The notes under the pieces were generated by a model, which was given only the letters and a program-made list of their open reading frames with translations, was not told where the DNA came from and searched no databases. Shown piece by piece: positions 1,650 to 28,335 of a stretch of 28,335 nucleotides of DNA (position 1 is its first letter; the number at the start of each line of letters is the position of its first letter). Source of the stretch: a virus. Its lineage: Duplodnaviria > Heunggongvirae > Uroviricota > Caudoviricetes. Location of the stretch: the IMG/VR virus record IMGVR_UViG_2737471849_000009; one strand, written 5' to 3'. The translations under genes were made by a program, and so were the position numbers.

Positions 1650-1656
1650 GTCAACC

Positions 1657-1803: not shown

Positions 1804-1806
1804 TCG

Positions 1807-2049: not shown

Positions 2050-2080
2050 TTTTTCTCCTGCTCTCTGAATAGTGAGAACT

Positions 2081-2458: not shown

Positions 2459-2466
2459 TTCCCTTA

Positions 2467-2485
2467 GCCCGGCGGCCTGCCGGGC
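2467..2485 (-). other. Intercistronic stem-loop (GCCCGGC-GGCCT-GCCGGGC)
   Basis: Perfect 7-bp inverted repeat with 5-nt loop between the SPFH gene stop and the next start; no U-tract on the minus strand, so not a canonical intrinsic terminator. Confidence 0.4.
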
Positions 2486-2492
2486 ATATAAG

Positions 2493-3320: not shown

Positions 3321-3505
3321 CTTTTATCCTTAGTGAAAGAAAGACCCTTGTAAATGGCATAAATGCAGGGCGGGGTCAGAAACGCCAGTGCAAAGCCAGA
3401 AATAACTGCTATCGTATCCTTCATGGATATAAGGAACGGAACGAGTAATCCGTAAATGCATGCGATAATTGCCAGTAAAATTACTATTGTGAAATACAGT
3501 CTCAT
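3317..3505 (-). CDS. Small membrane protein (62 aa, two predicted TM helices)
   Basis: Hydrophobic ORF whose stop overlaps the SPFH start in an ATGA arrangement, implying translational coupling. Confidence 0.5.
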   Translation of the reverse strand: MRLYFTIVILLAIIACIYGLLVPFLISMKDTIAVISGFALAFLTPPCIYAIYKGLSFTKDKR

Positions 3506-3528
3506 TGGTCTGTGGTATCCCGATATTT

Positions 3529-3636
3529 TTAACCGACTGACAGCGCAATAAAGAGAATAATGATTTCAGTTAGTGTCAGTACTGTGGCAAGGATTAAAAT
3601 CAGTTTTACTCTGTTTAATTCACGGTTGCTTTTCAT
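3529..3636 (-). CDS. Putative single-TM micropeptide (35 aa, MKSNRELNRVKLILILATVLTLTEIIILFIALSVG)
   Basis: Hand-translated ORF directly downstream of the candidate promoter/palindrome at 3658-3693; no clear Shine-Dalgarno, so speculative. Confidence 0.2.
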   Translation of the reverse strand: MKSNRELNRVKLILILATVLTLTEIIILFIALSVG

Positions 3637-3657
3637 ATAAACGGTTGGTAAAAGATG

Positions 3658-3693
3658 GAAGAATTATATTCTTCTTAATATTTAATGTGTCAC
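3658..3693 (-). promoter_or_regulatory. Candidate promoter with palindromic operator (GAAGAAT-N3-ATTCTTC) overlapping a TATAAT -10
   Basis: Perfect 7-bp inverted repeat at 3658-3674; on the minus strand its centre reads TATAAT, with GTGACA about 19 nt upstream as a possible -35; sits just upstream of the membrane/SPFH genes. Confidence 0.4.
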
Positions 3694-4263
3694 TGGCGCT
3701 TCTGGCATACCATGAGTATTCAGGTCGTTCATCATTTCATCCAGAAGGAGTTCAAGCCCTTCGCGCCCCATAGCAGAAATAATGAAACCATTATCAGGAT
3801 CTGCGATGAGCATTTTTTGATAGAGAAACAGAACTCGCCCCATGCCTTCAGCTTCGCCATATTTTTCAATAAATCCCCATTCGACGTGGTTTTGCAGGGC
3901 AATACGAAGTGGTCCGGGGTAGATACTCAGGCAACCATGTTTACCCTTGTAAATAACCGCGTGATCTGTAGTTCCGTTATCGTTAGGGATATCAACGGTA
4001 CCGTTCTTGTCTTTCTCTTCATTTATAAACGTAGTCACATACAGCCATCGCCACTGAGCAACCTTCATATCGACTGAAAATCGTCCCAGCAACCCTGCAT
4101 CATCGGCTTCTGCAATACATTGCATGATTCTTAAACCGTGTGAGTTTGGATAATCGTATTCACCATCATTAAGCCGCTGTACGGCCTCAACATAATCAAT
4201 GGTTGTATTGCCAATTTTTATGCCATGTGGCGTAACTTCTGGTCGGAACTCTGAATGATTCAT
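3682..4263 (-). CDS. Hypothetical protein (193 aa from ATG 4261-4263)
   Basis: ORF 3682..4320 trimmed to the Met with AAGGAG 9 nt upstream; its start overlaps the stop of the upstream 62-aa ORF (TTATGA); no recognisable motif. Confidence 0.5.
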   Translation of the reverse strand: MNHSEFRPEVTPHGIKIGNTTIDYVEAVQRLNDGEYDYPNSHGLRIMQCIAEADDAGLLGRFSVDMKVAQWRWLYVTTFINEEKDKNGTVDIPNDNGTTDHAVIYKGKHGCLSIYPGPLRIALQNHVEWGFIEKYGEAEGMGRVLFLYQKMLIADPDNGFIISAMGREGLELLLDEMMNDLNTHGMPEAPVTH

Positions 4264-4448
4264 AATGTTTGCTCCTTTGCTGGTGGAATAATCGTGTAGC
4301 CAGCTCTTTTTGCCATCCACAGAAATGTATCCATGCAGCCAACGAATTCATTATCCAACAGATGTTTTGAGTAAATTACTTCACCATTTTCAATGGTTAG
4401 CAACACTCTTACTTTTTTATGTGTTATGTTTTGTTGTTTTTCTTTCAT
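4260..4448 (-). CDS. Hypothetical small protein (62 aa)
   Basis: ORF with GGAGA Shine-Dalgarno upstream of the ATG; translationally coupled to the downstream 193-aa gene. Confidence 0.45.
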   Translation of the reverse strand: MKEKQQNITHKKVRVLLTIENGEVIYSKHLLDNEFVGCMDTFLWMAKRAGYTIIPPAKEQTL

Positions 4449-4644
4449 TTATTTATCTCCCATATGCTTTGCGCAAATACAGGTTGGCTATATGAAGATA
4501 AGAATCTCCATGTTGTGCAATGAGGCAGGCAGTTTTATACGATGCCTTATGTTTCAGGAAAGTCATAACATAATCTCCTGCGAATAAAGGTTGCAACAAT
4601 CCCCGGCGATAAAACCGTAATAAACATTCAGTGAATATTTATTG

Positions 4645-4845
4645 TTATTGCGCTAATTCTTTTTTGACTGCAGCTTTCGAATATTCACATGCAAAAGACA
4701 GGATTTCATCACCTAATGTTTTTGCATTCTGATTATTTGACATCTGTAAAACTTGCGCAGCGCACAACAGACTATGAATGTTTATTGCAAATGAATTCGA
4801 TGCCAGACAAATACCTTCGAAATTGTCATGGATATTACTATTCAC
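4645..4845 (-). CDS. Hypothetical small protein (66 aa, GTG start)
   Basis: GTG start with AAGGAG 9 nt upstream that overlaps the stop codon of the preceding HTH gene. Confidence 0.4.
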   Translation of the reverse strand: MNSNIHDNFEGICLASNSFAINIHSLLCAAQVLQMSNNQNAKTLGDEILSFACEYSKAAVKKELAQ

Positions 4846-4850
4846 TGCTG

Positions 4851-5303
4851 TTACTCCTTTGCAGCATTGCTACCAGTCAATAACCACATCGGATCGCAGC
4901 CAAGAATATTTGCCAGTGGGATAAGCATACTGATAGTTGGTTCATACTCTCCGCTCTCCCACTGGATGATGATTTCTTCATCAAGAGCGAGCAGCCTGGC
5001 GAGTTCGGCTGTTGTTAAGCCGCAGGCTTCGCGTTGGGTGCGAAGGTTAACCAGCCAGCTTTCAGGGAAGGATTGTTTTTGTTGTGCAGGAGAAGCAGCA
5101 GATAGAGCATATTCATGGATAAATTCCATTACCTCAATGCCCAGTTCCTTTGAGCGAGCACAATCCAGAAGATGGAATGTGCGTACAGCACTTAGCAAAT
5201 TTGCAATATTTAATGCAAAGGAATCAAGTTCTAAGCCCTTAAGCGTAACACAGCCGCAGTTGATAAAATTAGTTGTTTCTGGAGTTGCTTTTAGTGTCTT
5301 CAT
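4851..5303 (-). CDS. HTH (XRE-type) domain protein with uncharacterised N-terminal domain
   Basis: 150 aa; C-terminal segment LTTAELARLLALDEEIIIQWESGEYEPTISMLIPLANILGCDPMWLL matches the XRE helix-turn-helix pattern; first gene after the pL-like promoter. Confidence 0.55.
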   Translation of the reverse strand: MKTLKATPETTNFINCGCVTLKGLELDSFALNIANLLSAVRTFHLLDCARSKELGIEVMEFIHEYALSAASPAQQKQSFPESWLVNLRTQREACGLTTAELARLLALDEEIIIQWESGEYEPTISMLIPLANILGCDPMWLLTGSNAAKE

Positions 5304-5356
5304 ATATCCACCAACAATTTTAAATTGAATTAAATCAAGTTATAATTGATGGTGCG

Positions 5357-5385
5357 ATATTATGCTTTGGGAAATAGGCTGTCAA
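5357..5385 (-). promoter_or_regulatory. pL-like sigma70 promoter (TTGACA-N17-TAATAT) for the leftward accessory operon
   Basis: Minus strand reads cTTGACAgcctatttcccaaagcaTAATATcg: consensus -35, 17-nt spacer, near-consensus -10; positioned between the cI terminator and the first early-left gene as in lambda. Confidence 0.55.
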
Positions 5386-5412
5386 GAAAAAATTGATATC
5401 GTATATTTCAGG

Positions 5413-5438
5413 CAGAAAAAAAACGGGCAAAGCCCGTT
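5413..5438 (-). terminator. Intrinsic terminator downstream of the repressor gene (bidirectional shape)
   Basis: Hairpin CGGGC-aaa-GCCCG flanked by an A8 run on one side and T-rich sequence on the other; on the minus strand the stem is followed by U8, 12 nt after the cI stop. Confidence 0.55.
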
Positions 5439-5449
5439 AAAATCAAAGA

Positions 5450-6139
5450 CTAACCAAATCTGTTTATGTTGAATGGTACTGATGAGATCACTTTAGACTG
5501 GATATAAAGCAGAGCTAACCCCTCTTTTTCGATGCTCCATGGTTGATAATTGGGGTTATCAGATAACACCATGATTTTGCTTCCAATTTTTTGAAGCCTT
5601 TTCACGTAGCATTCTCCATCAAAACAAAATGCATAAATACCATCGCCATCAAAATAAGTTACTGTCTTATCAAGAAAAAGAAGGTCGCCAGGTGAGATTG
5701 TGGGAGCCATACTGTCTCCTCTGGCGTTACCTATTTCTATATTTTTGAATGCCCGATTTCCAACAAGACGTCGGGCATATTCAGGATCAAGTTCTATTGA
5801 GCGCACTACATCTATCAAGTCACCACGGACATGAGTTCCATCACCGCAACTGAACTCAACATCAAGGACATTAAACACGACGCTATCTGTTCTTGTCTGG
5901 TGTTTCTCTGGCGAGGAGAAGGTCGGTGAGGGGTCTTCACCTAAGAACCAGGATTGTGGATAACCGCTAATCTCTGATAACTGCGCAAGCTTATCACTCC
6001 GTGGAAATGTCTTTCCTGTTGTCCAGTACTGCACTGATTGCGCACTCACACCTAACTTACGGGCCAGTTGAGCTTGAGTCCATCCTTTTGCTTTCAGCAT
6101 CGCGGCTATACGATTTTCCGTGTTTTTGACGTTCTTCAT
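5450..6139 (-). CDS. cI: CI-like prophage repressor (HTH plus LexA-like S24 peptidase domain)
   Basis: 229 aa; N-terminal HTH (WTQAQLARKLGVSAQSVQYWTTGK); C-terminal peptidase motifs GDSMAPT (Ser) and VKRL (Lys); divergent from a Cro-like gene. Confidence 0.85.
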   Translation of the reverse strand: MKNVKNTENRIAAMLKAKGWTQAQLARKLGVSAQSVQYWTTGKTFPRSDKLAQLSEISGYPQSWFLGEDPSPTFSSPEKHQTRTDSVVFNVLDVEFSCGDGTHVRGDLIDVVRSIELDPEYARRLVGNRAFKNIEIGNARGDSMAPTISPGDLLFLDKTVTYFDGDGIYAFCFDGECYVKRLQKIGSKIMVLSDNPNYQPWSIEKEGLALLYIQSKVISSVPFNINRFG

Positions 6140-6272
6140 GACCAGGTCCTGTGGGTTTCTTTACAAGGATAAATCTTTACTTGATTTTAGTGTATTCGAT
6201 CCTTTTGCAACTTGCATGTTAATTTAATCTTGATATATTCTTGATTCATAAAGTTAATATTGGTGCTTTGTT
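6140..6272. promoter_or_regulatory. Divergent promoter/operator region between cI-like and Cro-like genes
   Basis: 133-bp AT-rich intergenic region with three direct CTTGAT repeats (about 6192, 6229, 6240) and a TAATAT -10-like hexamer; the CTTGAT motif recurs next to the pL-like promoter. Confidence 0.5.
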
Positions 6273-6572
6273 ATGAAAGGAAATGATTACGACAAACTTC
6301 GTACATTAATTGCGCAAAATGCCATAGCGCGAAATCTTGGTGTGACGCCGCAAGCGGTGAATCAGTGGTTTTCAAAAAACACAATTCCTGCTCGTTTTGT
6401 TTTACGCGTATGTGAAGTAGTTGCATGGAAGGTCACGCCACATGGCTTAAGGCCAGATCTTTATCCTCACCCTGAAGATGGAATTCCTGATTCGTTACGC
6501 AAAATTTCAAATCCAAGCCTAGCGCGCACGGAAGATGGGCAGAGTGATTCATCAGAAATGTCCACGCGATGA
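6273..6572 (+). CDS. Cro-like HTH regulator (YdaS-type)
   Basis: 99 aa; HTH segment IARNLGVTPQAVNQWFSKNTIP; divergent from cI across the operator region. Confidence 0.65.
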   Translation: MKGNDYDKLRTLIAQNAIARNLGVTPQAVNQWFSKNTIPARFVLRVCEVVAWKVTPHGLRPDLYPHPEDGIPDSLRKISNPSLARTEDGQSDSSEMSTR

Positions 6573-6648
6573 ACGGTTACTGAACGAAAAAAGAAAAGCC
6601 GGGCCGCACTCCGTCAGCCCGACTTATTCTGATTAGTAAGGGGATTTC

Positions 6649-7509
6649 ATGATGATCAATAAACAAAAATTAGTCAACCCTGAAAACCTGCCAGTGATTG
6701 AGTGGCAGGGGGTACGCGTAGTTACCACTGAAACGCTGGCGGCGGGATATGGCACGGATGAAGCTAATATCCGTAAAAATCTGTCGCGCAATCTTGAGCG
6801 CTTTGAAGATGGGAAACATTATTTTCTTTTAACTGGTGATGCCCTGAAAGCATTTAAGGACAGAGTGACTATTGGTCACTCTGTTGGAAGAAATGCGCGT
6901 TCACTCACTCTCTGGACAGAACGCGGCGCTGCCCGCATGTCAAAAATCGTCGATACAGACGAGGCCTGGTCGTTCTTCGAAAAAATGGAGCAGGCGTATT
7001 TTCGTAAAGCAACGCCTTCTTCAAACACTATTCCAGACTTTGACGATCCGATCGCTGCTGCTGAAGCGTGGATTGAAGCCAAAAAATCCGAACGCCTTGC
7101 TCTCGGGTATGCAGAGCGTCAGGCTCGCTACATCAGCAAACTCGAAAGCCATCTCGCCGATGGCATCACTCCTGTGCAGTTCTGCAAACAACTCAACGGT
7201 GTAAACACTCGTCAGATTAATGCGTTCCTTGAAGAGCGTAACTGGCTGTATGACGACCGTCCGGAGGCTATGTATCCGCGCTGGCGTGTAAAAGCGTATG
7301 CACGTGACCAATACCTGACTGAGCGTTCTGGGCAGGTTGAGCAGGAAAACGGGGAAATACGCGAGATTTTCAAACCACTCCTGAAGAAAAAAGGTGCCGC
7401 CTGGTTATATCGCCATTATCTGAACGGTGAACTACCGATGAAGAAAACATGGGATGGGCTGTTTACCCATAACACTGAGCTCGCGAATCTTTTACAGGAG
7501 AACAAATAA
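6649..7509 (+). CDS. Antirepressor (ORF6N-type N-terminal domain plus Ant/KilA-C-like C-terminal domain)
   Basis: 286 aa; N-terminal domain (LPVIEWQGVRVVTTETLAAGYG ... LTLWTERGAARMSKIVDTDEAWSFFEKMEQAYF) is paralogous to ORF 13301..13789; longer C-terminal domain typical of phage antirepressors. Confidence 0.75.
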   Translation: MMINKQKLVNPENLPVIEWQGVRVVTTETLAAGYGTDEANIRKNLSRNLERFEDGKHYFLLTGDALKAFKDRVTIGHSVGRNARSLTLWTERGAARMSKIVDTDEAWSFFEKMEQAYFRKATPSSNTIPDFDDPIAAAEAWIEAKKSERLALGYAERQARYISKLESHLADGITPVQFCKQLNGVNTRQINAFLEERNWLYDDRPEAMYPRWRVKAYARDQYLTERSGQVEQENGEIREIFKPLLKKKGAAWLYRHYLNGELPMKKTWDGLFTHNTELANLLQENK

Positions 7510-7718
7510 TGCAAACCAAGACGTGTGTAACTGGTGATGTCGATCTGAAACCTTGCCCGTTCTGCGGAAATCCGGAAGTACAACTCATTGAGGTGAAATA
7601 TTTTCTGGATGGCGATGATGGTTATTACGTCGCATGTACTTGCTGTAACGCAAACCAGATCCCTGATTCGAAAGAACGTGCTGTTCATGACTGGAATCAG
7701 CGCGAAAACGCGGATTGA
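7509..7718 (+). CDS. lar: Lar-family restriction alleviation protein (zinc-ribbon)
   Basis: 69 aa with CPFCG ... CTCC four-cysteine pattern typical of Lar/RalR-like proteins; start overlaps the antirepressor stop (TAATG). Confidence 0.6.
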   Translation: MQTKTCVTGDVDLKPCPFCGNPEVQLIEVKYFLDGDDGYYVACTCCNANQIPDSKERAVHDWNQRENAD

Positions 7719-7754
7719 CGGCGAGTAGGTACAAAATGATCCGCAACCAACATA

Positions 7755-15577: not shown

Positions 15578-15928
15578 ATGCCATCACAAATCCCTCGTGC
15601 ATGCCGTAAGCGAGGCTGTGCAGGCACAACGACGGACAGTTCGGGCTACTGCGATAAGCATCGCGGCGAAGGTTGGACACAACATCAACGCGGACTGAGC
15701 CGCCACCAGCGTGGCTATGGCTCGAAATGGGATGCCATACGTGCGCGCATACTGAAGCGTGATAATCATTTGTGTCAGAACTGCCTGCGCAATGGGAGAG
15801 CCGTTGAAGCCAGAACTGTGGACCACATCATTCCGAAAGCGCATGGCGGTACGGATGCAGACGGTAATCTGCAGAGCCTGTGCTGGCCATGCCACAAGGA
15901 GAAAACAGCGCGTGAACGCATCAACTGA
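15578..15928 (+). CDS. HNH endonuclease (terminase-associated type)
   Basis: 116 aa from ATG 15578 with GAGGAG Shine-Dalgarno; HNH motif DHIIPKAHGGTDADGNLQSLCWPCHKEKT; cysteine pairs CRKRGC and CQNC; directly upstream of terS. Confidence 0.8.
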   Translation: MPSQIPRACRKRGCAGTTTDSSGYCDKHRGEGWTQHQRGLSRHQRGYGSKWDAIRARILKRDNHLCQNCLRNGRAVEARTVDHIIPKAHGGTDADGNLQSLCWPCHKEKTARERIN

Positions 15929-16076
15929 TAATCGTTCTCATCTGTAAGGGAGGGGCGGGTCAAATCTCTGCAACCCTGGCTGCTCAGTACCGCCGCCTGA
16001 CCCTTCCTCACATCGCCGCAGGTTCGAAAACTTTTTTTTGGAAATGTGAACAAACGATTGATAGGTAAGACCGATT

Positions 16077-16559
16077 ATGTCAGGACCTCCGAAAACCCCG
16101 CCAGGCCTGCATTTGATACGAGGCAACCCCTCAAAGCGTCCCGTTAAAGACCACAAAAAAACCGCTAAAAAGGATGAAAAAGGTCTTCCTAAAATTCCGC
16201 AGCATTTAGGGGCTCAGGGGAAGTACTGGTTCAGGCGAATGGCGGAAGAGCTGAATGCGGAAGGGATCATTTCTCAGCTTGATGCACGTGCGCTCGAGTT
16301 GCTGGTGGAAGCCTACACCGAATATCGGCATCACTGCGAAACACTCGATGTTGAGGGGTATACTTACCGCACGGAAACGCAGAGCGGTGATGTACTGATT
16401 AAGGCGCACCCCGCGGCGGCAATGAAAGCGGATGCCTGGAAGCGGATCCGGGCAATGCTTGCAGAGTTTGGTATGTCACCGGCAAGCCGGGCTAAAGTAA
16501 ATATCGCCGGACCGGATGATGTTGATCCGCTGGCGGAGCTTTTAAAAGCGAGAGACTGA
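16077..16559 (+). CDS. Terminase small subunit (P27-family-like)
   Basis: 160 aa basic protein directly upstream of and overlapping the large terminase start (TGATGG); position and size. Confidence 0.7.
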   Translation: MSGPPKTPPGLHLIRGNPSKRPVKDHKKTAKKDEKGLPKIPQHLGAQGKYWFRRMAEELNAEGIISQLDARALELLVEAYTEYRHHCETLDVEGYTYRTETQSGDVLIKAHPAAAMKADAWKRIRAMLAEFGMSPASRAKVNIAGPDDVDPLAELLKARD

Positions 16560-18316
16560 TGGCAAAAGTGGCTGACGGGATCCGCTACGCCGAACGTGTT
16601 GTTGCAGGAGAAATTGTTGCTGGCGAATTTGTCCGCCTGGCCTGCCAGCGTTTTCTTGATGATCTGAAGTACGGCGAAGAGCGGGGGATTTATTTCAGTG
16701 AACCCCGTGCGCAGCACATCCTGAATTTCTACAAATTTGTGCCTCATGTAAAAGGGGCGCTGGCAGGCCAGCCCATTGAGTTGATGGACTGGCATGTATT
16801 TATCCTCATTAATATTTTTGGTTTTGTCATTCCGCTGGTCAATGAAGAGACCGGGGAAGTTGTCATGCGCAGCGATGGCAGCGGACGTCCGGTGATGGTG
16901 CGCCGGTTCCGGACGGCGTACAACGAAGTCGCCCGTAAAAACGCAAAATCAACTCTGTCATCGGGTATCGGCCTGTATATGACGGGGGCAGATGGTGAAG
17001 GCGGAGCTGAGGTGTATTCAGCCGCAACCACGCGTGACCAGGCCAGAATCGTGTTTGAAGACGCCAAAAATATGGTCAGAAAAGCCCGGTCGACACTCGG
17101 GCGGTTGTTTGATTTCAACAAGCTGGCGATTTACCAGGAGCAGAGCGCATCAAAATTTGAACCGCTTTCTTCGGATGCAAACAACCTGGATGGTCTGAAC
17201 ATTCACTGCGCCATTATTGATGAGCTGCATGCACATAAAACCCGTGACGTGTGGGACGTTCTGGAAACGGCAACCGGTGCTCGTCTGCAGTCCCTTTTAT
17301 TTGGTATCACCACGGCAGGGTTTAACAAGGAAGGGATTTGTTACGAGCAGCGTGATTACGCCATCAAGGTATTGCGTGGCTATAACAGCGACGTGGAGGG
17401 CGCGGTAAAAGACGACTCCTACTTTGCGATTATTTACACCCTCGATGAGGGAGATGATCCGTTTGATGAAACGGTCTGGCAGAAAGCGAATCCCGGCCTG
17501 GGCATCTGTAAACGCTGGGATGATCTGCGTCGCTTGGCGAAAAAAGCGAAAGAACAGGTCTCTGCACGGGTGAATTTTTTTACCAAACACATGAATGTGT
17601 GGGTAACAGCAGAGTCTGCCTGGATGGACATGATTAAGTGGGAGAAGTGCGAATACATTGCCCCACGACATGAGCTGAAAACGTATCCCATGTGGGTCGG
17701 CGTTGACCTTGCTCATAAGATTGATATCTGTGCGGCGGCAAAACTCTGGCGAACGGATAACGGGCATGTTCATGCCGATTTTAAATTCTGGCTTCCGGAA
17801 GGACGGCTGGAACGATGCTCGCGGCAGCAGGCAGAACTTTACCGGAAGTGGGCGGAGATGGATAAGCTGATTCTGACGGATGGTGATGTTATCGATCATG
17901 CTCAGATAAAAAGTGACTTACTGGAATGGATTGGTGGTGAAAACCTCAGGGAACTGGGATTTGACCCGTGGAGCGCGATGCAGTTCAGCCTGGCACTGGC
18001 TGAAGAAGGGATACCGCTGGTGGAGGTTCCGCAGACGGTTCGCAATCTGTCAGAGGCCATGAAGGAAACGGAATCACTGGTCTATGCCGGGCGTTTCCAT
18101 CACAGCAATCATCCGGTCATGAACTGGATGATGTCTAACGTTACGGTAAAACCGGACAAAAACGACAATATCTTCCCGAATAAATCCACGCTGGAAGCCA
18201 AAATCGACGGTCCTGTTGCGATGTTTACAGCAATGAGCCGGATGCTGGTCAATGGCGGTGAACCGGAGCCGGATCTGTCTGAGCATCTGGTCAGCGTTGG
18301 TATCCGCTCGCTTTAA
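16559..18316 (+). CDS. Terminase large subunit
   Basis: 585 aa; N-terminal ATPase region and C-terminal nuclease-like region with conserved acidic residues ([15 protein letters not shown]); downstream of HNH and TerS. Confidence 0.9.
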
Positions 18317-18327
18317 CCGAGGTCATT

Positions 18328-18510
18328 ATGTTTCTGATAATTCTCACGCCACTGGTGGGCGTGCTGGGGGCGCTTTTGCTGTCGTATGGCACATGGCTGA
18401 TTTATCCCCCGGCAGGTTTTGTTGTTGCCGGGGGGCTGTGCCTGTGCTGGTCGTGGCTGGTTGCGCGTTATCTCGATCGTGGTCACCGGGTCGCCTCCGG
18501 AGGTGAGTAA
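18328..18510 (+). CDS. Small membrane protein (60 aa, two predicted TM helices)
   Basis: GAGGT Shine-Dalgarno 6 nt upstream of the ATG; stop overlaps the next start (TAATG); occupies the position where a portal gene is expected. Confidence 0.3.
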
Positions 18511-18737
18511 TGTTTTTCCAGGGGCTTTTTCAACGTAAAAATAATACCCCCGTCACAACGCCCGGGATGCTTGCGGAAGAACTTGGGTTGTCATACGACA
18601 CCTATACCGGACTGCAACCTGTATTTTCAGAGGATGATCGTGAACAGGTGATTGCCGTGTATGGCCCGGTGCATGCGCGGCTTCTTCGGCAGTCTCTGGA
18701 ACTGATCAGTGATGCCGGCGAGGTTAAAAAAAAGTAG
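18510..18737 (+). CDS. Tail assembly chaperone G-like (short; possibly truncated)
   Basis: 75-aa ORF ending in the slippery run GTT AAA AAA AAG TAG, directly upstream of a T-domain ORF in the -1 frame. Confidence 0.5.
   Translation: MFFQGLFQRKNNTPVTTPGMLAEELGLSYDTYTGLQPVFSEDDREQVIAVYGPVHARLLRQSLELISDAGEVKKK
18728..18734 (+). other. Candidate -1 programmed ribosomal frameshift heptamer A_AAA_AAG
   Basis: X_XXY_YYZ heptamer in the G frame 1 codon before the stop; the -1 frame opens at 18728 and is continuous with ORF 18749..19039. Confidence 0.55.
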
Positions 18738-18748
18738 CGCTTCCGGGG

Positions 18749-19039
18749 ATGCGTTTTCTGATGATGCTGGCACTCAGGATGGGGCGCACATTGTCAGAGT
18801 TACGCCGGGAAATGTCCGCATCAGAAATCATGATGTGGGCAGAATTTGACAGGTTCAGCCCGCTGGGGGACGAACGGGCTGATATCCGGGCTGCCCAGAT
18901 TGTTTCAGCTGTTTACGGTGCGCAGGGTGTCAAAGTACCACTGAATGATGCGCTTCTTCAGTGGGAGCATGAATCAGAAGAAAATAAATGCGATGATCCA
19001 TTTATTGGATTAGAGGTTGCTCTAATGTCTTCACTATAA
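18749..19039 (+). CDS. Tail assembly chaperone T domain (expected as a G-T fusion via -1 frameshift)
   Basis: 96-aa ORF (MRFLMMLALRMGRTLSELRREMSASEIMMWAEFDRFSPLGDERADIRAAQIVSAVYGAQGVKVPL) resembling recalled minor tail protein T sequences; frame is -1 relative to G. Confidence 0.6.
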   Translation: MRFLMMLALRMGRTLSELRREMSASEIMMWAEFDRFSPLGDERADIRAAQIVSAVYGAQGVKVPLNDALLQWEHESEENKCDDPFIGLEVALMSSL

Positions 19040-19097
19040 GATAATTTTTTAATCGTTTTGAAATTGAATGCTTTACTCAAAGTCAGGAGGATTAATC

Positions 19098-19439
19098 ATG
19101 AGAAAATCAGTGGTGACATTAGCTTGTTTGTTTTTTATTAGTGCATGTAAGCCATCAGATAATTATGTTATTTCTTTAGGGGAAAACTTAGTTAAAGATA
19201 AGCTTATTGATCCTGATAGTGCAAAATTTAATTCTTTTTTTCATAAGTCAGGTGATTTATATGGTTATGTTTGTGGTGATGTTAATTCAAAAAACACGTT
19301 TGGTGGATATACAGGGAAAAAGCCATATTTTGTTTATTTGGAAGTTGTGGATGGAAAAGTTAAGAGTCATGGGACTGTAACAATTGTTAATGATCATGAT
19401 CCAAGCAGTATGGAAAAATATAAGTTGTTTTGCCAATAA
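19098..19439 (+). CDS. AT-rich moron lipoprotein (113 aa)
   Basis: ATG 19098 with AGGAGG Shine-Dalgarno; signal peptide with lipobox ISAC; markedly AT-rich codons compared with flanking tail genes; own terminator downstream. Confidence 0.6.
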   Translation: MRKSVVTLACLFFISACKPSDNYVISLGENLVKDKLIDPDSAKFNSFFHKSGDLYGYVCGDVNSKNTFGGYTGKKPYFVYLEVVDGKVKSHGTVTIVNDHDPSSMEKYKLFCQ

Positions 19440-19449
19440 TTATCATCTT

Positions 19450-19475
19450 AAAAAACCGCAGAAGCGGTTTTTTTA
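19450..19475 (+). terminator. Intrinsic terminator after the moron lipoprotein gene (bidirectional shape)
   Basis: A5-CCGC-agaa-GCGG-T7 hairpin 11 nt after the lipoprotein stop and 14 nt before the tape measure start. Confidence 0.55.
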
Positions 19476-19488
19476 TGGGGTAAAGTAA

Positions 19489-22400
19489 ATGGCGACATTA
19501 CGTGAGCTGATTATTAAAATCTCGGCAAATTCCCGGTCATTCCAGTCAGAGATCTCCCGGGCTTCGCGTATGGGGCAGGATTACTACCGTACCATGCAGA
19601 ACGGAGGCCGGCAGTCCGCTGCTGCATCCCGTGAAATGCGGCGTGCACTGGCAGAAGTGACGGATCAGATAAATACAGCTAAATCTTCGGCACTGAATAT
19701 GGCGGGGGCATTTGCCGGGGCTTTTGCTACCGGTCATCTTATTTCTCTCGCCGATGAGTGGAATTCAGTAAATGCCCGTCTGAAGCAGGCCTCACAGTCC
19801 ACTGATGATTTTCAGGTATCACAACGTGAATTAATGGCAATCAGCCAGAGAACGGGAACGGCGTTTTCTGATAACGCCAGCCTTTTTGCCCGCTCTGCAG
19901 CTTCCATGCGGGAGTATGGCTACAGTTCTGAGGAGGTACTGAAAGTCACCGAGGCTATCTCCACGGGCCTGAAATTATCCGGTGCCAGTGCAGCAGAAGC
20001 CAGTTCGGTGATCACGCAGTTCAGTCAGGCACTGGCGCAGGGAGTGCTGCGCGGTGAAGAATTTAACTCTGTGAATGAGAACGGCGATCGTGTTATTCGT
20101 GCGCTGGCTGCGGGAATGGGTGTTGCCCGTAAGGATCTGAAGGCCATGGCGGATAACGGAAAGTTGACCGCCGATAAGGTTGTTCCTGCACTGATTAGTC
20201 AGCTTGGGGCGTTGCGTGATGAATATGCAGCAATGCCTGATACGGTTTCATCCTCTGCAACCAAAGTTGAAAACGCCTTTATGGCCTGGGTTGGTGGTGC
20301 GAACGAAGCAAGCGGAGTGACGAAGACGCTCTCCGGTGTGCTGAATGGTATTGCAGGCAATATTGACACTGTGGCAACCGCTGCCGGTGCTCTGGTTGCC
20401 GTCGGGGTAGCCCGATATTTTGGCAATATGGCATCTTCTGCTGGATCTGCAACTGCCGGATTAATTACTGCAGCCAGAAACGAAGTAGCTCTTGCGGAAG
20501 CGCAGCTCCGGGGGACGCAGATAGCAACCGCCAGGGCGCGTGCGGCGGTTTATCGTGCGCAACAGGCGGTCGCGGCTACCCGTGGTACTGAAAGACAGGC
20601 AGCCGCAGAAGCGAAACTGGCTGCTGCCCAGGCATCACTTACCCGTAATATTGCGGCCAGAACAGCAGCACAGACAACGCTGAATACTGTCACGTCAGTG
20701 GGGAGTCGTTTATTAAGTGGTGCGCTGGGGCTGGTTGGTGGTGTGCCGGGACTCGTCATGCTGGGGGCGACGGCCTGGTACACGATGTATCAGAATCAGG
20801 AGCAGGCCAGAGAATCTGCACGCCAGTATGCCGCAACAATCGACGAAATTCGCCAGAAAACGTCGGCAATGTCGCTTCCTGAAGCGTCAGATAATGAGGA
20901 AAAGACGCGGCAGGCACTGGAGGAACAAAATCGCCTGATTAACGAACAGGAAGGAAAAATTCGCGGACTGAAAAATCAAATTGCTGATTATCAACGTTGG
21001 CTTGATGAAAGTTCGCAGAGTGGTTCTGGTGCTGAAATCATCCTTAAAGGGCTTGCAGAAGCAACAAATCAACTGGCAGTTGAACAGTCCCGTCTCACAC
21101 AAATGCAGGGCAAAGCGCAATCCATTCAGGATGTGCTTGCCGGGCTGGAGGAGCGACGAGTGGCGTTGATCCGTCAACAGGCAGCGGAACAAAACAAAGC
21201 GTATCAGTCCCTGTTGATCATGAATGGGAAGCATACCGAGTTTAATCGCCTTCTCGGGCTTGGTAATGAATTACTTCAGCAGCGACAGGGGCTGGTGAAT
21301 GTACCGTTACGGCTACCACAGGCAACTCTGGATGATAAACAGCAGACCGCACTGAATAACAGCAAGCGCGAACTGGCTCTGTCCCGCCTTAAGGGGGAAG
21401 CGCGTGAGCGTGCCCGACTGGGCTATGCTGCGGATGATCTCGGCTTTGTGGGAGAGGCGTATCGGACAGCCAGACAGAATTATATCAATAACTCACTGGA
21501 TGCCTGGCGAAATAACCAGGCAAATAAACCCAAAGCGCATAAAAAGACCGAAGCGGAAAAAACAGAAGATATTTATAAACGGCTGATTAAACAGCAAAAA
21601 GAACAGATAGCACTGGCAGGGCAGAATACTGAACTGGCTAAGATGAAATATCAGGTCAGTCAGGGCGAATTATCAACCCTGTCAGAAGCGCAGAAAAAAA
21701 CGCTTTTGCAGAATGCAGCACTCATCGACCAGAAAAAGATTCGTGAGCAGCTTGCCGCGTATGAAAGCAGTCTGGCGGACAGTAATGCCAGTGCCCGGGC
21801 ATCTGACGACGCGCAGTTGCTGGGATATGGTGAAGGCTCACGGATGCGTGAACGACTCCAGGAAATGTGGAGTATCCGGCATGAGTTTGAGCAGAAAAAT
21901 AACGAGCTGCTGAGACAGTATCAGGCCGGAGAAATTGAAGAAGCCCTGTGGAAACAGGAGAAAGAACTGAATAAAAAATATCTGGAAGAGCGTCTCAGCG
22001 ATCAGCAGGATTATTATGCAAAGGCCGATGCTTTACGTAATAACTGGAATGCCGGACTCCAGGAGGGACTGACCAACTGGGCAGACAGTGCCACCGATTA
22101 TGCTTCACAGGCGGCAGATGCTGTTGTTTCCACGATGGACGGGCTGGTATCAAATATTTCCGATGCACTGGCCGGGAATGTTGTGGAGTGGAGGAACTGG
22201 GGGAGTTCAGTTCTCCGGGAAGTTTCAAAAATTCTGATGAATGCGGCCATTGTTAACGGACTGAAGTCACTCTCCGGTGCCGGAGGGTGGCTTGGTACGG
22301 TCGGCGGATGGATTTCGGGGGCGGTGGCAAACGCAAAAGGTGGTGTTTACACATCGGCAAATCTGAGTGCTTACAGTAACACTATTGTGGATACACCGAC

Positions 22401-22689
22401 GTATTTTGCTTTTGCGAAAGGTGCCGGGCTGATGGGCGAGGCCGGGCCTGAAGCTATCATGCCACTGACACGGGCAGCGGACGGCTCTCTTGGGGTCAGA
22501 GCCATTGGCAATGTGAATGGTGGCGGTGGATTTGTTTATTCTCCCGTGTATCACATTAGCATTCAGAATCAAGGGAGCAATGGCGAGATAGATACGCGCT
22601 CAGCCAGGGGACTGGTGGATCTGATCGACAGCAGGGTTGTGTCAATTATGCAGTCATCGCGTCGGGATGGAGGATTATACAGTGCCTGA
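19489..22689 (+). CDS. H: Tail tape measure protein
   Basis: 1066 aa, Ala/Gln-rich coiled-coil protein; C-terminal segments (NWADSATDYASQAADAV ... RRDGGLYSA) parallel lambda gpH; followed by M, L, K, I, J. Confidence 0.9.
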   Translation: MATLRELIIKISANSRSFQSEISRASRMGQDYYRTMQNGGRQSAAASREMRRALAEVTDQINTAKSSALNMAGAFAGAFATGHLISLADEWNSVNARLKQASQSTDDFQVSQRELMAISQRTGTAFSDNASLFARSAASMREYGYSSEEVLKVTEAISTGLKLSGASAAEASSVITQFSQALAQGVLRGEEFNSVNENGDRVIRALAAGMGVARKDLKAMADNGKLTADKVVPALISQLGALRDEYAAMPDTVSSSATKVENAFMAWVGGANEASGVTKTLSGVLNGIAGNIDTVATAAGALVAVGVARYFGNMASSAGSATAGLITAARNEVALAEAQLRGTQIATARARAAVYRAQQAVAATRGTERQAAAEAKLAAAQASLTRNIAARTAAQTTLNTVTSVGSRLLSGALGLVGGVPGLVMLGATAWYTMYQNQEQARESARQYAATIDEIRQKTSAMSLPEASDNEEKTRQALEEQNRLINEQEGKIRGLKNQIADYQRWLDESSQSGSGAEIILKGLAEATNQLAVEQSRLTQMQGKAQSIQDVLAGLEERRVALIRQQAAEQNKAYQSLLIMNGKHTEFNRLLGLGNELLQQRQGLVNVPLRLPQATLDDKQQTALNNSKRELALSRLKGEARERARLGYAADDLGFVGEAYRTARQNYINNSLDAWRNNQANKPKAHKKTEAEKTEDIYKRLIKQQKEQIALAGQNTELAKMKYQVSQGELSTLSEAQKKTLLQNAALIDQKKIREQLAAYESSLADSNASARASDDAQLLGYGEGSRMRERLQEMWSIRHEFEQKNNELLRQYQAGEIEEALWKQEKELNKKYLEERLSDQQDYYAKADALRNNWNAGLQEGLTNWADSATDYASQAADAVVSTMDGLVSNISDALAGNVVEWRNWGSSVLREVSKILMNAAIVNGLKSLSGAGGWLGTVGGWISGAVANAKGGVYTSANLSAYSNTIVDTPTYFAFAKGAGLMGEAGPEAIMPLTRAADGSLGVRAIGNVNGGGGFVYSPVYHISIQNQGSNGEIDTRSARGLVDLIDSRVVSIMQSSRRDGGLYSA

Positions 22690-23023
22690 GCCTGAAGTTT
22701 TTAACTGGATCCCCCGTGAGGGGATGGAGACGACACGAAAGCCATCAGTTATTACGGTAAAGTTTGGTGACGGATATGAACAGCGACGGGCTGGTGGGCT
22801 GAATGCGGATCTGAAAACGTTTAAACCGGTATTTCGTGTCACAGATGAATACTCCCGTGCCGCGCTGGACAGTTTTTTATCCCGTCATGCCGGGATTCGT
22901 GCTTTTTTGTGGCGCCCGCCAAAACACAACAGGACTGTCCGGGTTGTCTGCAGGGAGTGGAGCATTTCGGATAATGCCATGTATACCGATTTTAACTGTA
23001 CCTTTGAAGAGGTCACTCACTGA
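22667..23023 (+). CDS. M: Minor tail protein M
   Basis: 118 aa from ATG 22667 (overlaps the end of H); KFGDGYEQRRAGGLNADLKTFKPVF matches lambda gpM RFGDGYSQRAPAGLNANLKTY. Confidence 0.8.
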   Translation: MEDYTVPEPEVFNWIPREGMETTRKPSVITVKFGDGYEQRRAGGLNADLKTFKPVFRVTDEYSRAALDSFLSRHAGIRAFLWRPPKHNRTVRVVCREWSISDNAMYTDFNCTFEEVTH

Positions 23024-23721
23024 TGCAGGATATACAGCAGGAAACACTCAATGAGTGCACTAAAACGGAGCAATCCGCGCTGGTCGTGCTCTGGGAAATT
23101 GATCTGACAGAGGTCGGCGGAGATCGTTACTTTTTCTGCAATGAGCAGAACGAAAAAGGTGAACCAGTCACCTGGCAGGGGCGGCAGTATCAGGCCTATC
23201 CCATTCAGGGAAGTGGATTTGAGATGAACGGCAAAGGAGCCAGTGCAAGGCCAACGCTGAAAGTCTCTAATCTGCACGGCATGGTCACCGGGATGGCGGA
23301 AGACCTGCAGAGTCTGGTCGGCGGAACGGTGGTCCGGCGTAAGGTTTACGCCCGTTTTCTGGATGCGGTGAACTTCGTCAACGGAAACAGTGACGCCGAT
23401 CCGGAGCAGGAGGTGATCAGCCGCTGGCGCATCGAGCAGTGCAGCGAACTGAGCGCGGTGAGTGCCTCCTTTGTACTGTCCACGCCGACGGAAACGGATG
23501 GCGCTGTTTTTCCGGGGCGTATCATGCTGGCCAACACCTGCACCTGGACCTATCGCGGTGATGAGTGCGGTTATCACGGTCCGGCAGTCGCGGATGAATA
23601 TGACCAGCTGACGTCCGATACCACGAAAGATAAATGCAGCAAATGCCTGAGTGGCTGTAAGTTTCGCAATAACGTCGGCAACTTTGGCGGCTTCCTTTCC
23701 ATTAACAAACTTTCGCAGTAA
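23023..23721 (+). CDS. L: Minor tail protein L
   Basis: 232 aa, near-identical by recall to lambda gpL over its whole length (MQDIQQETLNECTKTEQSALVVLWEIDLTEVGG ... CSKCLSGCKFRNNVGNFGGFLSINKLSQ). Confidence 0.9.
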   Translation: MQDIQQETLNECTKTEQSALVVLWEIDLTEVGGDRYFFCNEQNEKGEPVTWQGRQYQAYPIQGSGFEMNGKGASARPTLKVSNLHGMVTGMAEDLQSLVGGTVVRRKVYARFLDAVNFVNGNSDADPEQEVISRWRIEQCSELSAVSASFVLSTPTETDGAVFPGRIMLANTCTWTYRGDECGYHGPAVADEYDQLTSDTTKDKCSKCLSGCKFRNNVGNFGGFLSINKLSQ

Positions 23722-23725
23722 ACCC

Positions 23726-24469
23726 ATGACAGAAACAGAATCAGCGATTCTGGCGCACGCCCGGCGATGTGCGCCAGCGGAGTCGTGCGGCTTCGTGGTG
23801 AGAGCGCCGGAGGGGGAAAGATATTTTCCCTGCATGAATATTTCCGGTGAGCCGGAGGGTTATTTCCGGATGTCGCCGGAAGACTGGCTGCAGGCAGAAA
23901 TGCAGGGTGAGATTGTGGCGCTGGTCCACAGCCACCCCGGTGGTCTGCCCTGGCTGAGTGAGGCCGACCGGCGGCTGCAGGTGCAGAGTGATTTGCCGTG
24001 GTGGCTGGTCTGCCTGGGCGTGATTCACAAGTTCCGCTGTGTGCCGTATCTCACCGGGCGGCGCTTTGAGCACGGAGTGACGGACTGTTACACGCTGTTC
24101 CGGGACGCTTACCATCTGGCGGGAATTGAGATGCCGGATTTTCACCGCGAGGATGACTGGTGGCGTCACGGTCAGAATCTCTATCTTGACAATATGGAGG
24201 CAACGGGTTTTTACCGTGTCGCACTGACAGAGGCGCAGCCGGGCGACGTGCTGCTGTGCAGCTTTGGTTCATCGGTGCCGAATCATGCTGCCATTTACTG
24301 CGGCGACGGCGAGCTGCTGCACCATATTCCTGAACAACTGAGTAAACGAGAGAGGTACACCGACAAATGGCAGCGACGCACACACTCCCTCTGGCGTCAC
24401 CGGGCATGGCACGCATCTGCCTTTACGGGGATTTGCAACGATTTGGCCGCCGCATTGACCTTCGTGTGA
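23726..24469 (+). CDS. K: Tail assembly protein K (JAB/MPN plus NlpC/P60-like)
   Basis: 247 aa from ATG 23726; MTETESAILAHARRCAPAESCGFVV ... HSHPGG (JAMM-like) ... NHAAIYCGDGELLHHI closely parallels lambda gpK. Confidence 0.85.
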   Translation: MTETESAILAHARRCAPAESCGFVVRAPEGERYFPCMNISGEPEGYFRMSPEDWLQAEMQGEIVALVHSHPGGLPWLSEADRRLQVQSDLPWWLVCLGVIHKFRCVPYLTGRRFEHGVTDCYTLFRDAYHLAGIEMPDFHREDDWWRHGQNLYLDNMEATGFYRVALTEAQPGDVLLCSFGSSVPNHAAIYCGDGELLHHIPEQLSKRERYTDKWQRRTHSLWRHRAWHASAFTGICNDLAAALTFV

Positions 24470-25014
24470 AAACGGGGGCTGAAGCCATCCGGGCGCTGGC
24501 CACACAGCTCCCGGCGTTTCGTCAGAAACTGAGCGATGGCTGGTATCAGATACGGATTGCCGGGCGTGATACAGGTGAAAACGAATTATCAGCCCGTCTG
24601 AATGAGCCGCTGGAAAATGGTGCCGTGATCCACATCGTACCGCGTCTGGCGGGTGCTAAAAGTGGCGGTATTTTTCAGGCAGTGCTGGGGGCGGCGCTGA
24701 TTGCGGTTGCATGGTGGAACCCTGTGGGCTGGCTGGGGGCCGCGGCTGTATCGGGTATGTATGCGGCAGGGGCCAGTATGATCCTGGGCGGTGTGGCGCA
24801 GATGCTGGCCCCCAAACCCAGAACCCCCCGAACACAGACAACGGATAACGGTAAGCAGAACACCTATTTCTCCTCACTGGATAACATGGTTGCCCAGGGC
24901 AATGTTCTGCCTGTTCTGTACGGTGAAATGCGCGTGGGGTCACGCGTGGTTTCTCAGGAGATCAGCACGGCAGACGAAGGGGACGGTGGTCAGGTTGTGG
25001 TGATTGGTCGCTGA
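24367..25014 (+). CDS. I: Tail assembly protein I
   Basis: 215 aa; N- and C-terminal regions (MAATHTLPLASPGMARICLYGDLQRFGRRIDLRVKTGAEAIRALATQLPAFRQKLSDGWYQ ... KQNTYFSSLDNMVAQGNVLPVLYGEMRVGSRVVSQEISTADEGDGGQVVVIGR) match lambda gpI. Confidence 0.85.
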   Translation: MAATHTLPLASPGMARICLYGDLQRFGRRIDLRVKTGAEAIRALATQLPAFRQKLSDGWYQIRIAGRDTGENELSARLNEPLENGAVIHIVPRLAGAKSGGIFQAVLGAALIAVAWWNPVGWLGAAAVSGMYAAGASMILGGVAQMLAPKPRTPRTQTTDNGKQNTYFSSLDNMVAQGNVLPVLYGEMRVGSRVVSQEISTADEGDGGQVVVIGR

Positions 25015-25033
25015 TGCAAAATGTTTTATGTGA

Positions 25034-25060
25034 AACCGCCTCAGGGCGGTTTTGTCGTTT
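25034..25060 (+). terminator. Hairpin with short T-tract between I and J (possible attenuator)
   Basis: AACCGCC-tcag-GGCGGTT followed by TTTTG; sits between the I stop and the J start. Confidence 0.35.
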
Positions 25061-25074
25061 ATGGAGCGTGAGGA

Positions 25075-28000
25075 ATGGGTAAAGGCAGCAGTAAGGGGCA
25101 TACCCCGCGCGAAGCGAAGGACAACCTGAAGTCCACGCAGCTGCTGAGTGTGATCGATGCCATCAGCGAAGGGCCGGTTGAAGGTCCGGTGGATGGATTA
25201 AAAAGCGTGCTGCTGAACAGTACACCTGTGCTGGACAGTGAGGGGAATACCAATATCTCCGGCGTCACGGTGGTGTTCCGGGCCGGTGAGCAGGAGCAGA
25301 CACCGCCGGAGGGGTTTGAATCCTCCGGCTCCGAGACGGTGCTGGGTACGGAAGTGAAATATGACACGCCGATCACCCGCACCATTACGTCTGCAAACAT
25401 CGACCGTCTGCGCTTTACCTTCGGTGTACAGGCACTGGTGGAAACCACCTCAAAGGGTGACAGGAATCCGTCGGAAGTCCGCCTGCTGGTTCAGATACAA
25501 CGTAACGGTGGCTGGGTGACGGAAAAAGACATCACCATTAAGGGCAAAACCACCTCGCAGTATCTGGCCTCGGTGGTGGTGGGTAACCTGCCGCCGCGCC
25601 CGTTCAACATCCGGATGCGCAGGATGACGCCGGACAGCACCACAGACCAGCTGCAGAACAAAACGCTCTGGTCGTCATACACTGAAATCATCGATGTGAA
25701 ACAGTGCTACCCGAACACGGCACTGGTTGGCGTACAGGTGGACTCGGAACAGTTCGGCAGTCAGCAGGTGAGCCGTAATTATCATCTGCGCGGGCGCATT
25801 CTGCAGGTGCCGTCGAACTATAACCCGCAGACGCGGCAATACAGCGGTATCTGGGACGGAACGTTTAAACCGGCATACAGCAACAACATGGCCTGGTGTC
25901 TGTGGGATATGCTGACCCATCCGCGCTACGGCATGGGGAAACGTCTTGGTGCGGCGGATGTGGATAAATGGGCGCTGTATGTCATCGGCCAGTACTGCGA
26001 CCAGTCAGTGCCGGACGGCTTTGGTGGCACGGAGCCGCGCATCACCTGTAATGCGTACCTGACCACACAGCGCAAGGCGTGGGATGTGCTCAGTGATTTC
26101 TGCTCGGCGATGCGCTGTATGCCGGTATGGAACGGGCAGACGCTGACGTTCGTGCAGGACCGACCATCGGATAAGGTGTGGACCTATAACCGCAGTAATG
26201 TGGTTATGCCGGATGATGGTGCGCCGTTCCGCTACAGCTTCAGCGCCCTGAAGGACCGCCATAATGCCGTTGAGGTGAACTGGATTGACCCGGATAACGG
26301 CTGGGAGACAGCGACAGAGCTTGTGGAGGACACGCAGGCCATTGCCCGTTACGGTCGTAATGTTACGAAGATGGATGCCTTTGGCTGTACCAGCCGGGGG
26401 CAGGCACACCGCGCCGGGCTGTGGCTGATTAAAACAGAACTGCTGGAAACGCAGACCGTGGACTTCAGCGTGGGGGCCGAAGGGCTTCGCCATGTGCCGG
26501 GCGATGTCATTGAAATCTGCGATGATGACTATGCCGGTATCAGCACCGGTGGTCGCGTGCTGGCGGTGAACAGCCAGACCCGGACGCTGACGCTCGACCG
26601 TGAAATCACGCTGCCATCCTCCGGTACCACGCTGATAAGCCTGGTTGACGGAAGTGGTAATCCGGTCAGCGTGGAGGTTCAGTCCGTCACCGACGGACTT
26701 AAGGTGAAAGTGAACCGGGTTCCTGACGGCGTTGCAGAATACAGTGTGTGGGGGCTGAAGCTGCCGACGCTGCGCCAGCGCCTGTTCCGCTGCGTGAGTA
26801 TCCGTGAGAACGACGACGGCACGTATGCCATCACCGCCGTGCAGCATGTACCGGAAAAAGAGGCCATCGTGGATAACGGGGCGCACTTTGACGGCGACCA
26901 GAGCGGCACGGTGAATGGTGTCACGCCGCCAGCGGTGCAGCACCTGACCGCCGAAGTCACCGCAGACAGCGGGGAATATCAGGTGCTGGCGCGCTGGGAG
27001 ACGCCGAAGGTGGTGAAGGGGGTGAGCTTCCTGCTTCGCCTGACCGTGGCAGCGGATGACGGCAGTGAGCGGCTGGTCAGCACGGCCCGGACGACGGAAA
27101 CCACATACCGCTTCAGGCAGCTGACGCTGGGGCGTTACAGGCTGACAGTCCGGGCGGTAAATGCGTGGGGACAGCAGGGAGACCCGGCGTCGGTATCGTT
27201 CCGGATTGCCGCACCGGCAGCACCGTCGAGGATTGAGCTGACGCCGGGCTATTTTCAGATAACCGCCACGCCGCATCTTGCCGTTTATGACCCGACGGTA
27301 CAGTTTGAGTTCTGGTTCTCGGAAAAACGGATTGCGGATATCAGGCAGGTTGAAACCACAGCCCGCTATCTTGGCACGGCGCTGTACTGGATAGCTGCCA
27401 GTATCAATATCAGGCCGGGCCATGATTATTATTTTTACGTTCGCAGTGTGAACACCGTTGGCAAATCGGCATTCGTGGAGGCTGTCGGTCGGGCGAGCGA
27501 TGATGCGGAAGGTTACCTGGATTTTTTCAAAGGCAAGATAACCGAATCTCATCTCGGCAAGGAGTTGCTGGAAAAAGTCGACCTGACGGAGGATAACGCC
27601 AGCAGACTGGAGGAGTTTTCGAAAGAGTGGAAGGACGCCAACGATAAGTGGAATGCCATGTGGGCTGTCAAAATTGAGCAGACCAAAGACGGCAAACATT
27701 ATGTCGCGGGACTTGGCCTCAGCATGGAGGATACAGAGGAAGGCAAACTGAGCCAGTTTCTGGTTGCCGCTAACCGTATCGCGTTTATTGACCCGGCAAA
27801 CGGGAATGAAACGCCGATGTTTGTGGCGCAGGGCAATCAGATATTCATGAACGACGTGTTCCTGAAGCGCCTGACGGCCCCCACCATTACCAGCGGCGGC
27901 AATCCCCCGGCCTTTTCCCTGACACCGGACGGAAAGCTGACGGCGAAAAATGCGGATATCAGTGGCAGTGTGAATGCGAACGCCGGGACGCTCAATAATG

Positions 28001-28335
28001 TCACGATTAATGAGAACTGTCAGATTCTGGGAAAACTGTCAGCTATTCAGATTGAAGGCGATATTGTTAAAACGGTGGGTAAGGCTTTCCCCCGTGACTC
28101 CCGGGCACCGGAGCGGTGGCCATCAGGGACCATTACCGTCAGGGTTTATGACGATCAGCCTTTTGACCGGCAAATTGTCATTCCGGCGGTGGCATTCAGC
28201 GGTGCCAGACATGAGAGAGAGCATAATGACATTTATTCATCATGCCGTCTGATAGTGCGGAAAAACGGTGCTGAAATTTATAACCGTACCGCGCTGGATA
28301 ATACGCTGATTTATACCGGTGTGATTGATATGCCA
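25075..28335 (+). CDS. J: Host specificity/central tail fibre protein J (partial; continues beyond window end)
   Basis: Open frame from ATG 25075 to the window edge; N-terminus [54 protein letters not shown] and long internal stretches match lambda gpJ; long minus-strand ORFs here are antisense shadows. Confidence 0.9.

Follow-up and report, generated by a model that had tools for sequence, protein, structure and literature searches.

Introduction

The general picture of prophage inactivation is one of loss of lytic and structural functions (PMC6379469). In Escherichia coli, the cryptic ("grounded") lambdoid prophages, for example the Sp pool of strain O157 Sakai, carry internal deletions and keep many genes intact. 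Defective lambdoid prophages of O157 Sakai can be released in the form of particulate DNA and transferred through inter-prophage interactions (PMC2669165), and such elements may be rescued by co-resident prophages (PMC2669165; PMC6379469). Phage-inducible chromosomal islands (PICIs), capsid-forming PICIs and P4-like satellites form a second group of elements that keep integration, replication and packaging-recognition functions and have no capsid genes. Phage satellites are roughly 10-18 kb in size.

Here we describe a 28,335-nt stretch of DNA (the window) that covers a lambdoid prophage from its left attachment site through its J gene. We consider it very probable that the element is an HK97-type lambdoid siphovirus prophage, inserted into the 5′ end of mlrA (yehV), that recently became defective through two independent deletions generated by illegitimate recombination.

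Results

Gene content of the prophage and its insertion site

The left end of the window holds the following features.

17-37, no strand: attL core, CACGCGCGTAACGTGACAGGG, within the 5′ end of mlrA (yehV), present as a single copy in the window
75-1361, minus strand: tyrosine integrase, intact, a 428-aa ORF that is the counterpart of the annotated integrase of the intact relative described below
after the integrase, in window order: early and regulatory genes, replication genes and the Q antiterminator

The integrase with its att site, the repressor, the replication genes, Q, the HNH-TerS-TerL packaging genes, the tape measure gene and the tail-tip genes are all present, and the excisionase is also retained. 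A tRNA scan found no tRNA genes in the window. The mlrA gene, a regulator of curli and csgD, is interrupted in its 5′ end (window 1-54), with the 21-bp att core falling in the coding sequence. Approximately the first 16 native codons of mlrA (MALYTIGEVALLCDIN...) are stranded at the far end of the prophage, and the mlrA copy beside the integrase lacks an ATG and begins with phage-derived codons. Two further ORFs sit between Q and the holin gene: an ORF6N-domain ORF (13301-13789), the counterpart of which is annotated in the relative as a pseudogene with a truncated C terminus, and a low-GC (41%) AraC-family regulator gene (13953-14756), which looks like cargo in the late-promoter region.

An intact relative at the same locus

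When window positions 15500-19500 were compared by megablast with 5,426 complete E. coli genomes, 1,456 genomes were matched, none of them with at least 80% query coverage at one place. In most of the best 30 of the 1,456 genomes the match stopped at query position 3112, corresponding to window 18611, inside a gene annotated as "phage portal protein". The best match was strain E21845/O/A (NZ_CP076272.1), which carries an intact prophage between mlrA and btsS (positions 2432691-2475802, hereafter L001); UTAK-5 is also among the nearest carriers of an intact form. The same 21-bp att repeat is found at L001 2922 and 42145, bracketing an intact prophage of 39.2 kb. In L001, TerL is followed by a gene for a 60-aa hypothetical protein and by the portal, HK97 prohead protease, major capsid, head-tail connector and head closure genes, and then by genes for an HK97-gp10-like protein, tail completion gp17, an Ig-domain major tail protein, the tail assembly chaperone, T, a hypothetical protein and the tape measure protein.

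Alignment of the window to L001 by blastn gave four collinear blocks separated by three discontinuities.

Window 1-8393: L001 2906-11298, 99.44% identity
Window 8609-15238: L001 12126-18755, 99.91% identity
Window 15237-18611: L001 19738-23112, 100% identity
Window 18604-28335: L001 28632-38363, 99.93% identity

All DNA common to the window and L001 is thus 99.4-100% identical, and the attachment site is the same. Compared with L001, the window is without 5,527 bp reaching from portal to chaperone and 984 bp of lysis genes. The block containing the terminase genes has zero differences from L001, and the 9.7-kb tail block has seven, six of which are clustered within 93 bp of J (window 26770-26862). 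These six are all transitions (C/T or G/A), and the cluster may mark a short recombined segment of the host-range gene. At the remaining discontinuity, window 8394-8608 substitutes for L001 11299-12125, so that a 77-aa ORF (8391-8624) stands in the place of an 846-bp Rha-family regulatory gene; this difference has the look of a mosaic gene swap, not of a deletion. Among the related phages that have been sequenced are vB_EcoM-606R7 and phi467. Phages SfII and SfIV match the window only from the last part of TerL, across the 60-aa ORF, into the beginning of portal, at approximately 81% identity.

The region following TerL

The window ends its packaging module and enters the region of interest through these genes.

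15578-15928, plus strand: HNH endonuclease of the packaging module, intact (Pfam HNH, E = 2.4e-15), 100% identical to L001
approximately 15949-16000, no strand: cos region, retained, homologous by alignment to the annotated phiP27 cos site and identical to L001
16077-16559, plus strand: small terminase of the P27 family (Terminase_4), intact (Pfam E = 2.3e-25)
16559-18316, plus strand: large terminase, intact (Pfam TerL_ATPase and TerL_nuclease), 100% identical to L001
18328-18510, plus strand: 60-aa membrane protein gene, full length, normally located between TerL and portal, 100% identical to L001 22829-23011

The original prediction singled out 18317-18510 as the place where head genes had been lost, with TerL ending at 18316 and only a 60-aa hydrophobic ORF (18328-18510) before the next ORF. 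This layout was confirmed: TerL comprises 585 aa with both its ATPase and nuclease domains, and the small ORF lies where it was described. The interval itself, on the other hand, is native and undisturbed, and the lesion placed in it lies at 18604-18611, approximately 100 bp further to the right and inside ORF 18510-18737. The suggestion that the 60-aa ORF might be a fragment of a known gene was ruled out by its full-length conservation: the exact sequence occurs on 532 contigs, and the product matches phrog_502 ("membrane protein") at positions 3-56 of 58 with E = 1.2e-24. Relatives of 60 aa were found in Shigella, Salmonella, E. albertii and E. marmotae, and an integral membrane protein is annotated at the same place, in the TerL/portal interval, in Shigella phage SfII. 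It is therefore a complete conserved gene.

Deletion of the head and tail-tube genes

The alignment places the first junction, and the ORF that spans it, as follows.

18604-18611, no strand: junction of the 5,527-bp deletion at an 8-bp direct repeat, ATACCGGA, located by the overlap of the blastn blocks and by a three-way junction alignment
18510-18611, plus strand: portal remnant consisting of the start codon and first 34 codons, 34 residues identical to the L001 portal
18612-18737, plus strand: 3′ end of the chaperone gene (lambda G-like, Phage_TAC_1), in frame with the portal remnant, identified by tblastn and Pfam
18728-18734, plus strand: slippery heptamer A_AAA_AAG of the G-T −1 frameshift, retained in the correct phase

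Exactly 5,527 bp of L001 is missing at this point. The octamer is found at both L001 23105-23112 and L001 28632-28639, so the endpoints of the deletion are mapped to the base within an 8-bp microhomology. The left endpoint falls in portal codons 32-34, and the right endpoint at about codon 80-81 of the 123-aa tail assembly chaperone. The prohead protease, major capsid, head-tail connector, head closure, gp10-like, tail completion and major tail (tube) genes were lost whole; portal was lost past codon 34, and the chaperone lost its N-terminal two thirds (the first ~81 codons). The size of the loss had been put at 8-10 kb; by the alignment to L001 it is 5,527 bp, and the intact phage has about 5.6 kb between the TerL stop and the chaperone start.

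Consistent with this, tblastn of the L001 portal, protease and capsid proteins against the window returned only portal residues 1-34, and the connector, head closure, gp10, gp17 and major tail proteins gave no tblastn match in the window. The gene and Pfam lists of the window also hold no head genes. The absence of head-morphogenesis genes after TerL was thus borne out, both up to the tape measure gene and elsewhere in the window. Judged by synteny with L001, what follows beyond the window is limited to the remainder of J and two genes, one for a tail fibre and one for fibre assembly; the prophage thus keeps no head genes outside the window.

The gene starting at 18510 had been taken for a lambda G-like gene. 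Its start codon is that of portal and, as in the intact prophage, shares bases with the stop codon of the 60-aa ORF (TAATG); its first 34 codons are portal codons too. In tblastn, residues 1-34 of the 75-aa ORF 18510-18737 were identical to the L001 portal and the last 43 to the chaperone, with an overlap at the junction, and only residues 33-75 matched Phage_TAC_1, at profile positions 82-124 of 124; the L001 chaperone covers positions 1-124 in full. The portal domain PF04860, which spans residues 47-373 of the L001 portal, is wholly absent. From this alignment, we read ORF 18510-18737 as an in-frame fusion of 34 portal and 41 chaperone residues, and it should be annotated as a portal/chaperone fusion remnant and not as a tail chaperone. 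As the −1 frame is open from A_AAA_AAG through the T domain (Phage_tail_T), a portal′-′G-T frameshift product is conceivable; without the N-terminal two thirds of the chaperone it would be non-functional. The in-frame join was given no weight as a meaningful feature, the chance of it being 1 in 3. Similarly, the 6.7-kb late segment of L001 contains 732 pairs of 8-bp repeats, so the existence of the ATACCGGA repeat is not statistically remarkable and only its exact position at the junction is informative.

A deletion or, alternatively, a join between unrelated modules had been proposed for this locus, and the deletion is the part that stands: L001 occupies the same mlrA/btsS locus, and the left and right flanks of the junction are 100% and 99.93% identical to it. 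For the join to apply, a P27-type packaging module would have been brought next to a foreign lambda-type tail module by recombination of two phages. Lambdoid phages are mosaics, and a module swap does exist in the window at 8394-8608 relative to the Rha gene of L001, but both sides of the junction are collinear with L001 alone and share its attachment site, and the join interrupts two genes at an 8-bp repeat instead of falling between genes. A mosaic origin is accordingly highly improbable, and a foreign tail module is refuted by the match of both flanks to one phage.

Deletion of the lysis cassette

The second deletion lies upstream of the packaging module.

15237-15238, no strand: junction of a 984-bp deletion with TT microhomology, located by the blastn blocks and a junction alignment against L001
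14936-15268, plus strand: truncated Phage_holin_8 holin followed by 9 foreign codons, a 110-aa ORF holding the first 101 of 130 aa

The end of the first holin, the Phage_holin_3_7 holin, the Peptidase_M15_4 endolysin and most of a 65-aa ORF were lost at this junction. By tblastn, residues 1-101 of the first holin are present at 100% identity, ending at 15238, and the truncated product covers positions 1-101 of 121 of the Phage_holin_8 profile. A complete lysis cassette is therefore absent, with the holin_3_7 and M15 endolysin genes missing and the holin_8 gene cut at residue 101. This loss would render the prophage defective independently of the head deletion. A tailocin was also considered and ruled out, as the tail tube, tail completion and lysis genes are all missing.

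Occurrence of the two junctions

NCBI draft contig JAKFZE010000002.1 (GCA_022568615.1) matches the window at 100% identity, has both junctions and stops inside J. The fusion ORF, together with the sequence around it, was also found at 100% identity in the Logan assemblies of SRR17587033 and SRR22865517; SRR17587033 is possibly the read set of the NCBI assembly, so the independent observations may number two rather than three. The portal′-′chaperone fusion protein occurs on 2 contigs only, and the holin-fusion ORF (RefSeq WP_052511181.1) is likewise found on 2 contigs. Since the window comes from a draft assembly and stops at a contig end inside J, the missing segment might have been produced by a collapsed or mis-joined contig. 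However, the junction recurs in the two run assemblies as well as in the NCBI assembly, an 8-bp repeat is presumably far below the k-mer length of assemblers, and the second, unrelated junction on the same contig encodes a RefSeq protein known from two contigs. An assembly artefact is thus hardly credible.

Neither junction is spanned in any of the 5,426 complete E. coli genomes. No copy of the exact 39-nt junction string was present in JGI metagenome contigs or in the genomes representing GTDB species, which speaks to rarity only. In the phage collection, megablast of the region found relatives, none of which spans the junction, and a literature search returned general papers on defective prophages and none on the 5,527-bp deletion. 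Both deletions are real, rare and lineage-specific.

The short-read contigs (L002, L003 and L004) break at 15475 upstream of the HNH gene, at 23365 inside the L gene and at 28335 inside J. Such shared break points suggest that other prophages in the same genomes carry further copies of these segments; those prophages would be candidates for helpers or for partners in recombination.

Retained packaging and tail genes

Downstream of the first junction, the tail genes continue to the end of the window.

18761-19039, plus strand: tail assembly protein T (Phage_tail_T), intact (Pfam E = 3e-18), 100% identical to L001 T
19068-19439, plus strand: lipoprotein-like ORF between T and the tape measure gene, AT-rich (31% GC against 50% for the window), phrog_2320, also present in L001
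19489-22689, plus strand: tape measure protein of 1066 aa, intact (Pfam TMP_3, Phage_HK97_TLTM and Tape_meas_lam_C)
22667-25014, plus strand: tail-tip genes, lambda M-, L-, K- and I-like, intact (Pfam Phage_min_tail, Phage_tail_L, Prok-JAB/NLPC_P60 and Lambda_tail_I)
25075-28335, plus strand: J-like tail tip/host specificity gene, without a stop to the window end, J-type Pfam domains found on L004

The Pfam domains of the tail-tip genes and J were read on the identical contig L004. The reading frames of the tape measure, M, L, K, I and J genes are open. The lipoprotein-like ORF is probably a moron, and we would guess at a surface or exclusion function for its product. The annotated cos site of phiP27 lies in the interval from HNH to TerS. 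Just upstream of it is a block that is strongly conserved in the window (GGGAGGGGCGGGTCAAATC.CTGCAACCCTGGCTG). At the 10 nt that align with the cohesive end of phiP27 the two sequences differ, the window reading CGCCGCCTGA and phiP27 CGCCCGCCCC.

With so much retained, the element might be helper-dependent and satellite-like, packaged into the heads and tail tubes of a putative co-resident HK97-type prophage. On induction it would excise and replicate, its own HNH, TerS and TerL proteins would cut its own cos, and its own tape measure, tail-tip and J host-range proteins would be used. The integrase, excisionase, repressor, replication, Q, HNH/TerS/TerL and tail-tip genes are intact and 99.4-100% identical to L001, and the cos region is kept. 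The size of approximately 32.1 kb, 82% of the 39.2-kb parent, could be packageable, as judged by analogy with the packaging limits of lambda. The contig breaks at 15475, 23365 and inside J may point to repeated lambdoid sequence, and particulate release and transfer of DNA are known for defective prophages of O157 (PMC2669165). Against such a role, the architecture is not conserved, the junctions being found only in one draft genome and two read-run assemblies; satellite-specific genes are absent; and the junctions resemble random short-homology events that left a useless chaperone fragment. Nothing in the sequence indicates a selected, satellite-like design, and we regard helper dependence as improbable, with only a small chance of being correct.

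Discussion

The window has a collinear intact relative at the same locus and differs from it by discrete gaps of 5,527 bp and 984 bp, as expected of a deletion-derived defective prophage. The element derives by deletion from a type of prophage that is common in E. coli and combines a P27-family terminase, an HK97-type head and a lambda-type tail. Both losses are best attributed to illegitimate recombination at short homologies, or to slippage during replication, with direct repeats as the partners; this is the textbook route to such deletions. The first would have occurred between the two copies of ATACCGGA 5,527 bp apart, and its join would have fallen in frame by chance, giving the 75-aa portal′-′chaperone ORF and keeping the A_AAA_AAG signal. 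The second would have removed 984 bp at the TT microhomology, and with it the lysis genes.

Because the other genes are intact and 99.4-100% identical to those of L001, the decay is recent, and the defective prophage is very young rather than old and eroded. It is predicted from the gene content to be incapable of procapsid formation, head completion, tail tube formation, tail completion and lysis, and would make no autonomous particles; the procapsid would fail because portal, protease and capsid are missing. Such an outcome agrees with the usual course of prophage inactivation, in which lytic and structural functions are deleted (PMC6379469).

The locus offers a base-resolved case of a prophage turning defective, in which particle-making and lysis functions have been removed and no other decay has yet set in. 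Prophage-prediction tools may label the element "intact" or "questionable" because terminase and tail genes are present. The strain might be used as a natural system for testing whether prophages complement each other in trans. Should helper dependence prove true after all, the element would be a snapshot of a satellite-like element arising from a full phage in two steps.

Comparison with known systems

Events of this type are familiar; what has not been described before is this particular allele. Measured against a complete HK97-type/lambdoid temperate siphovirus, the window lacks the head, connector/tail-tube and lysis genes and has the remainder. It is most readily likened to the cryptic lambdoid prophages of the O157 Sakai type in its internal deletions, its many intact genes and the possibility of rescue by co-resident prophages, but it differs from them in being very young, free of point-mutational decay and, within the window, of IS insertions, with only two clean deletions in one lineage. 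It resembles PICIs, capsid-forming PICIs and P4-like satellites in keeping integration, replication and packaging-recognition functions without capsid genes. A recurrent architecture, which would be expected of PICI-like satellites, was not found among the 5,426 E. coli genomes and the JGI and GTDB sequences, from all of which the junctions are absent. In contrast to such satellites, the element is approximately 32 kb in size, carries no satellite-specific genes and belongs to no conserved family; it corresponds to a complete phage minus two deletions.
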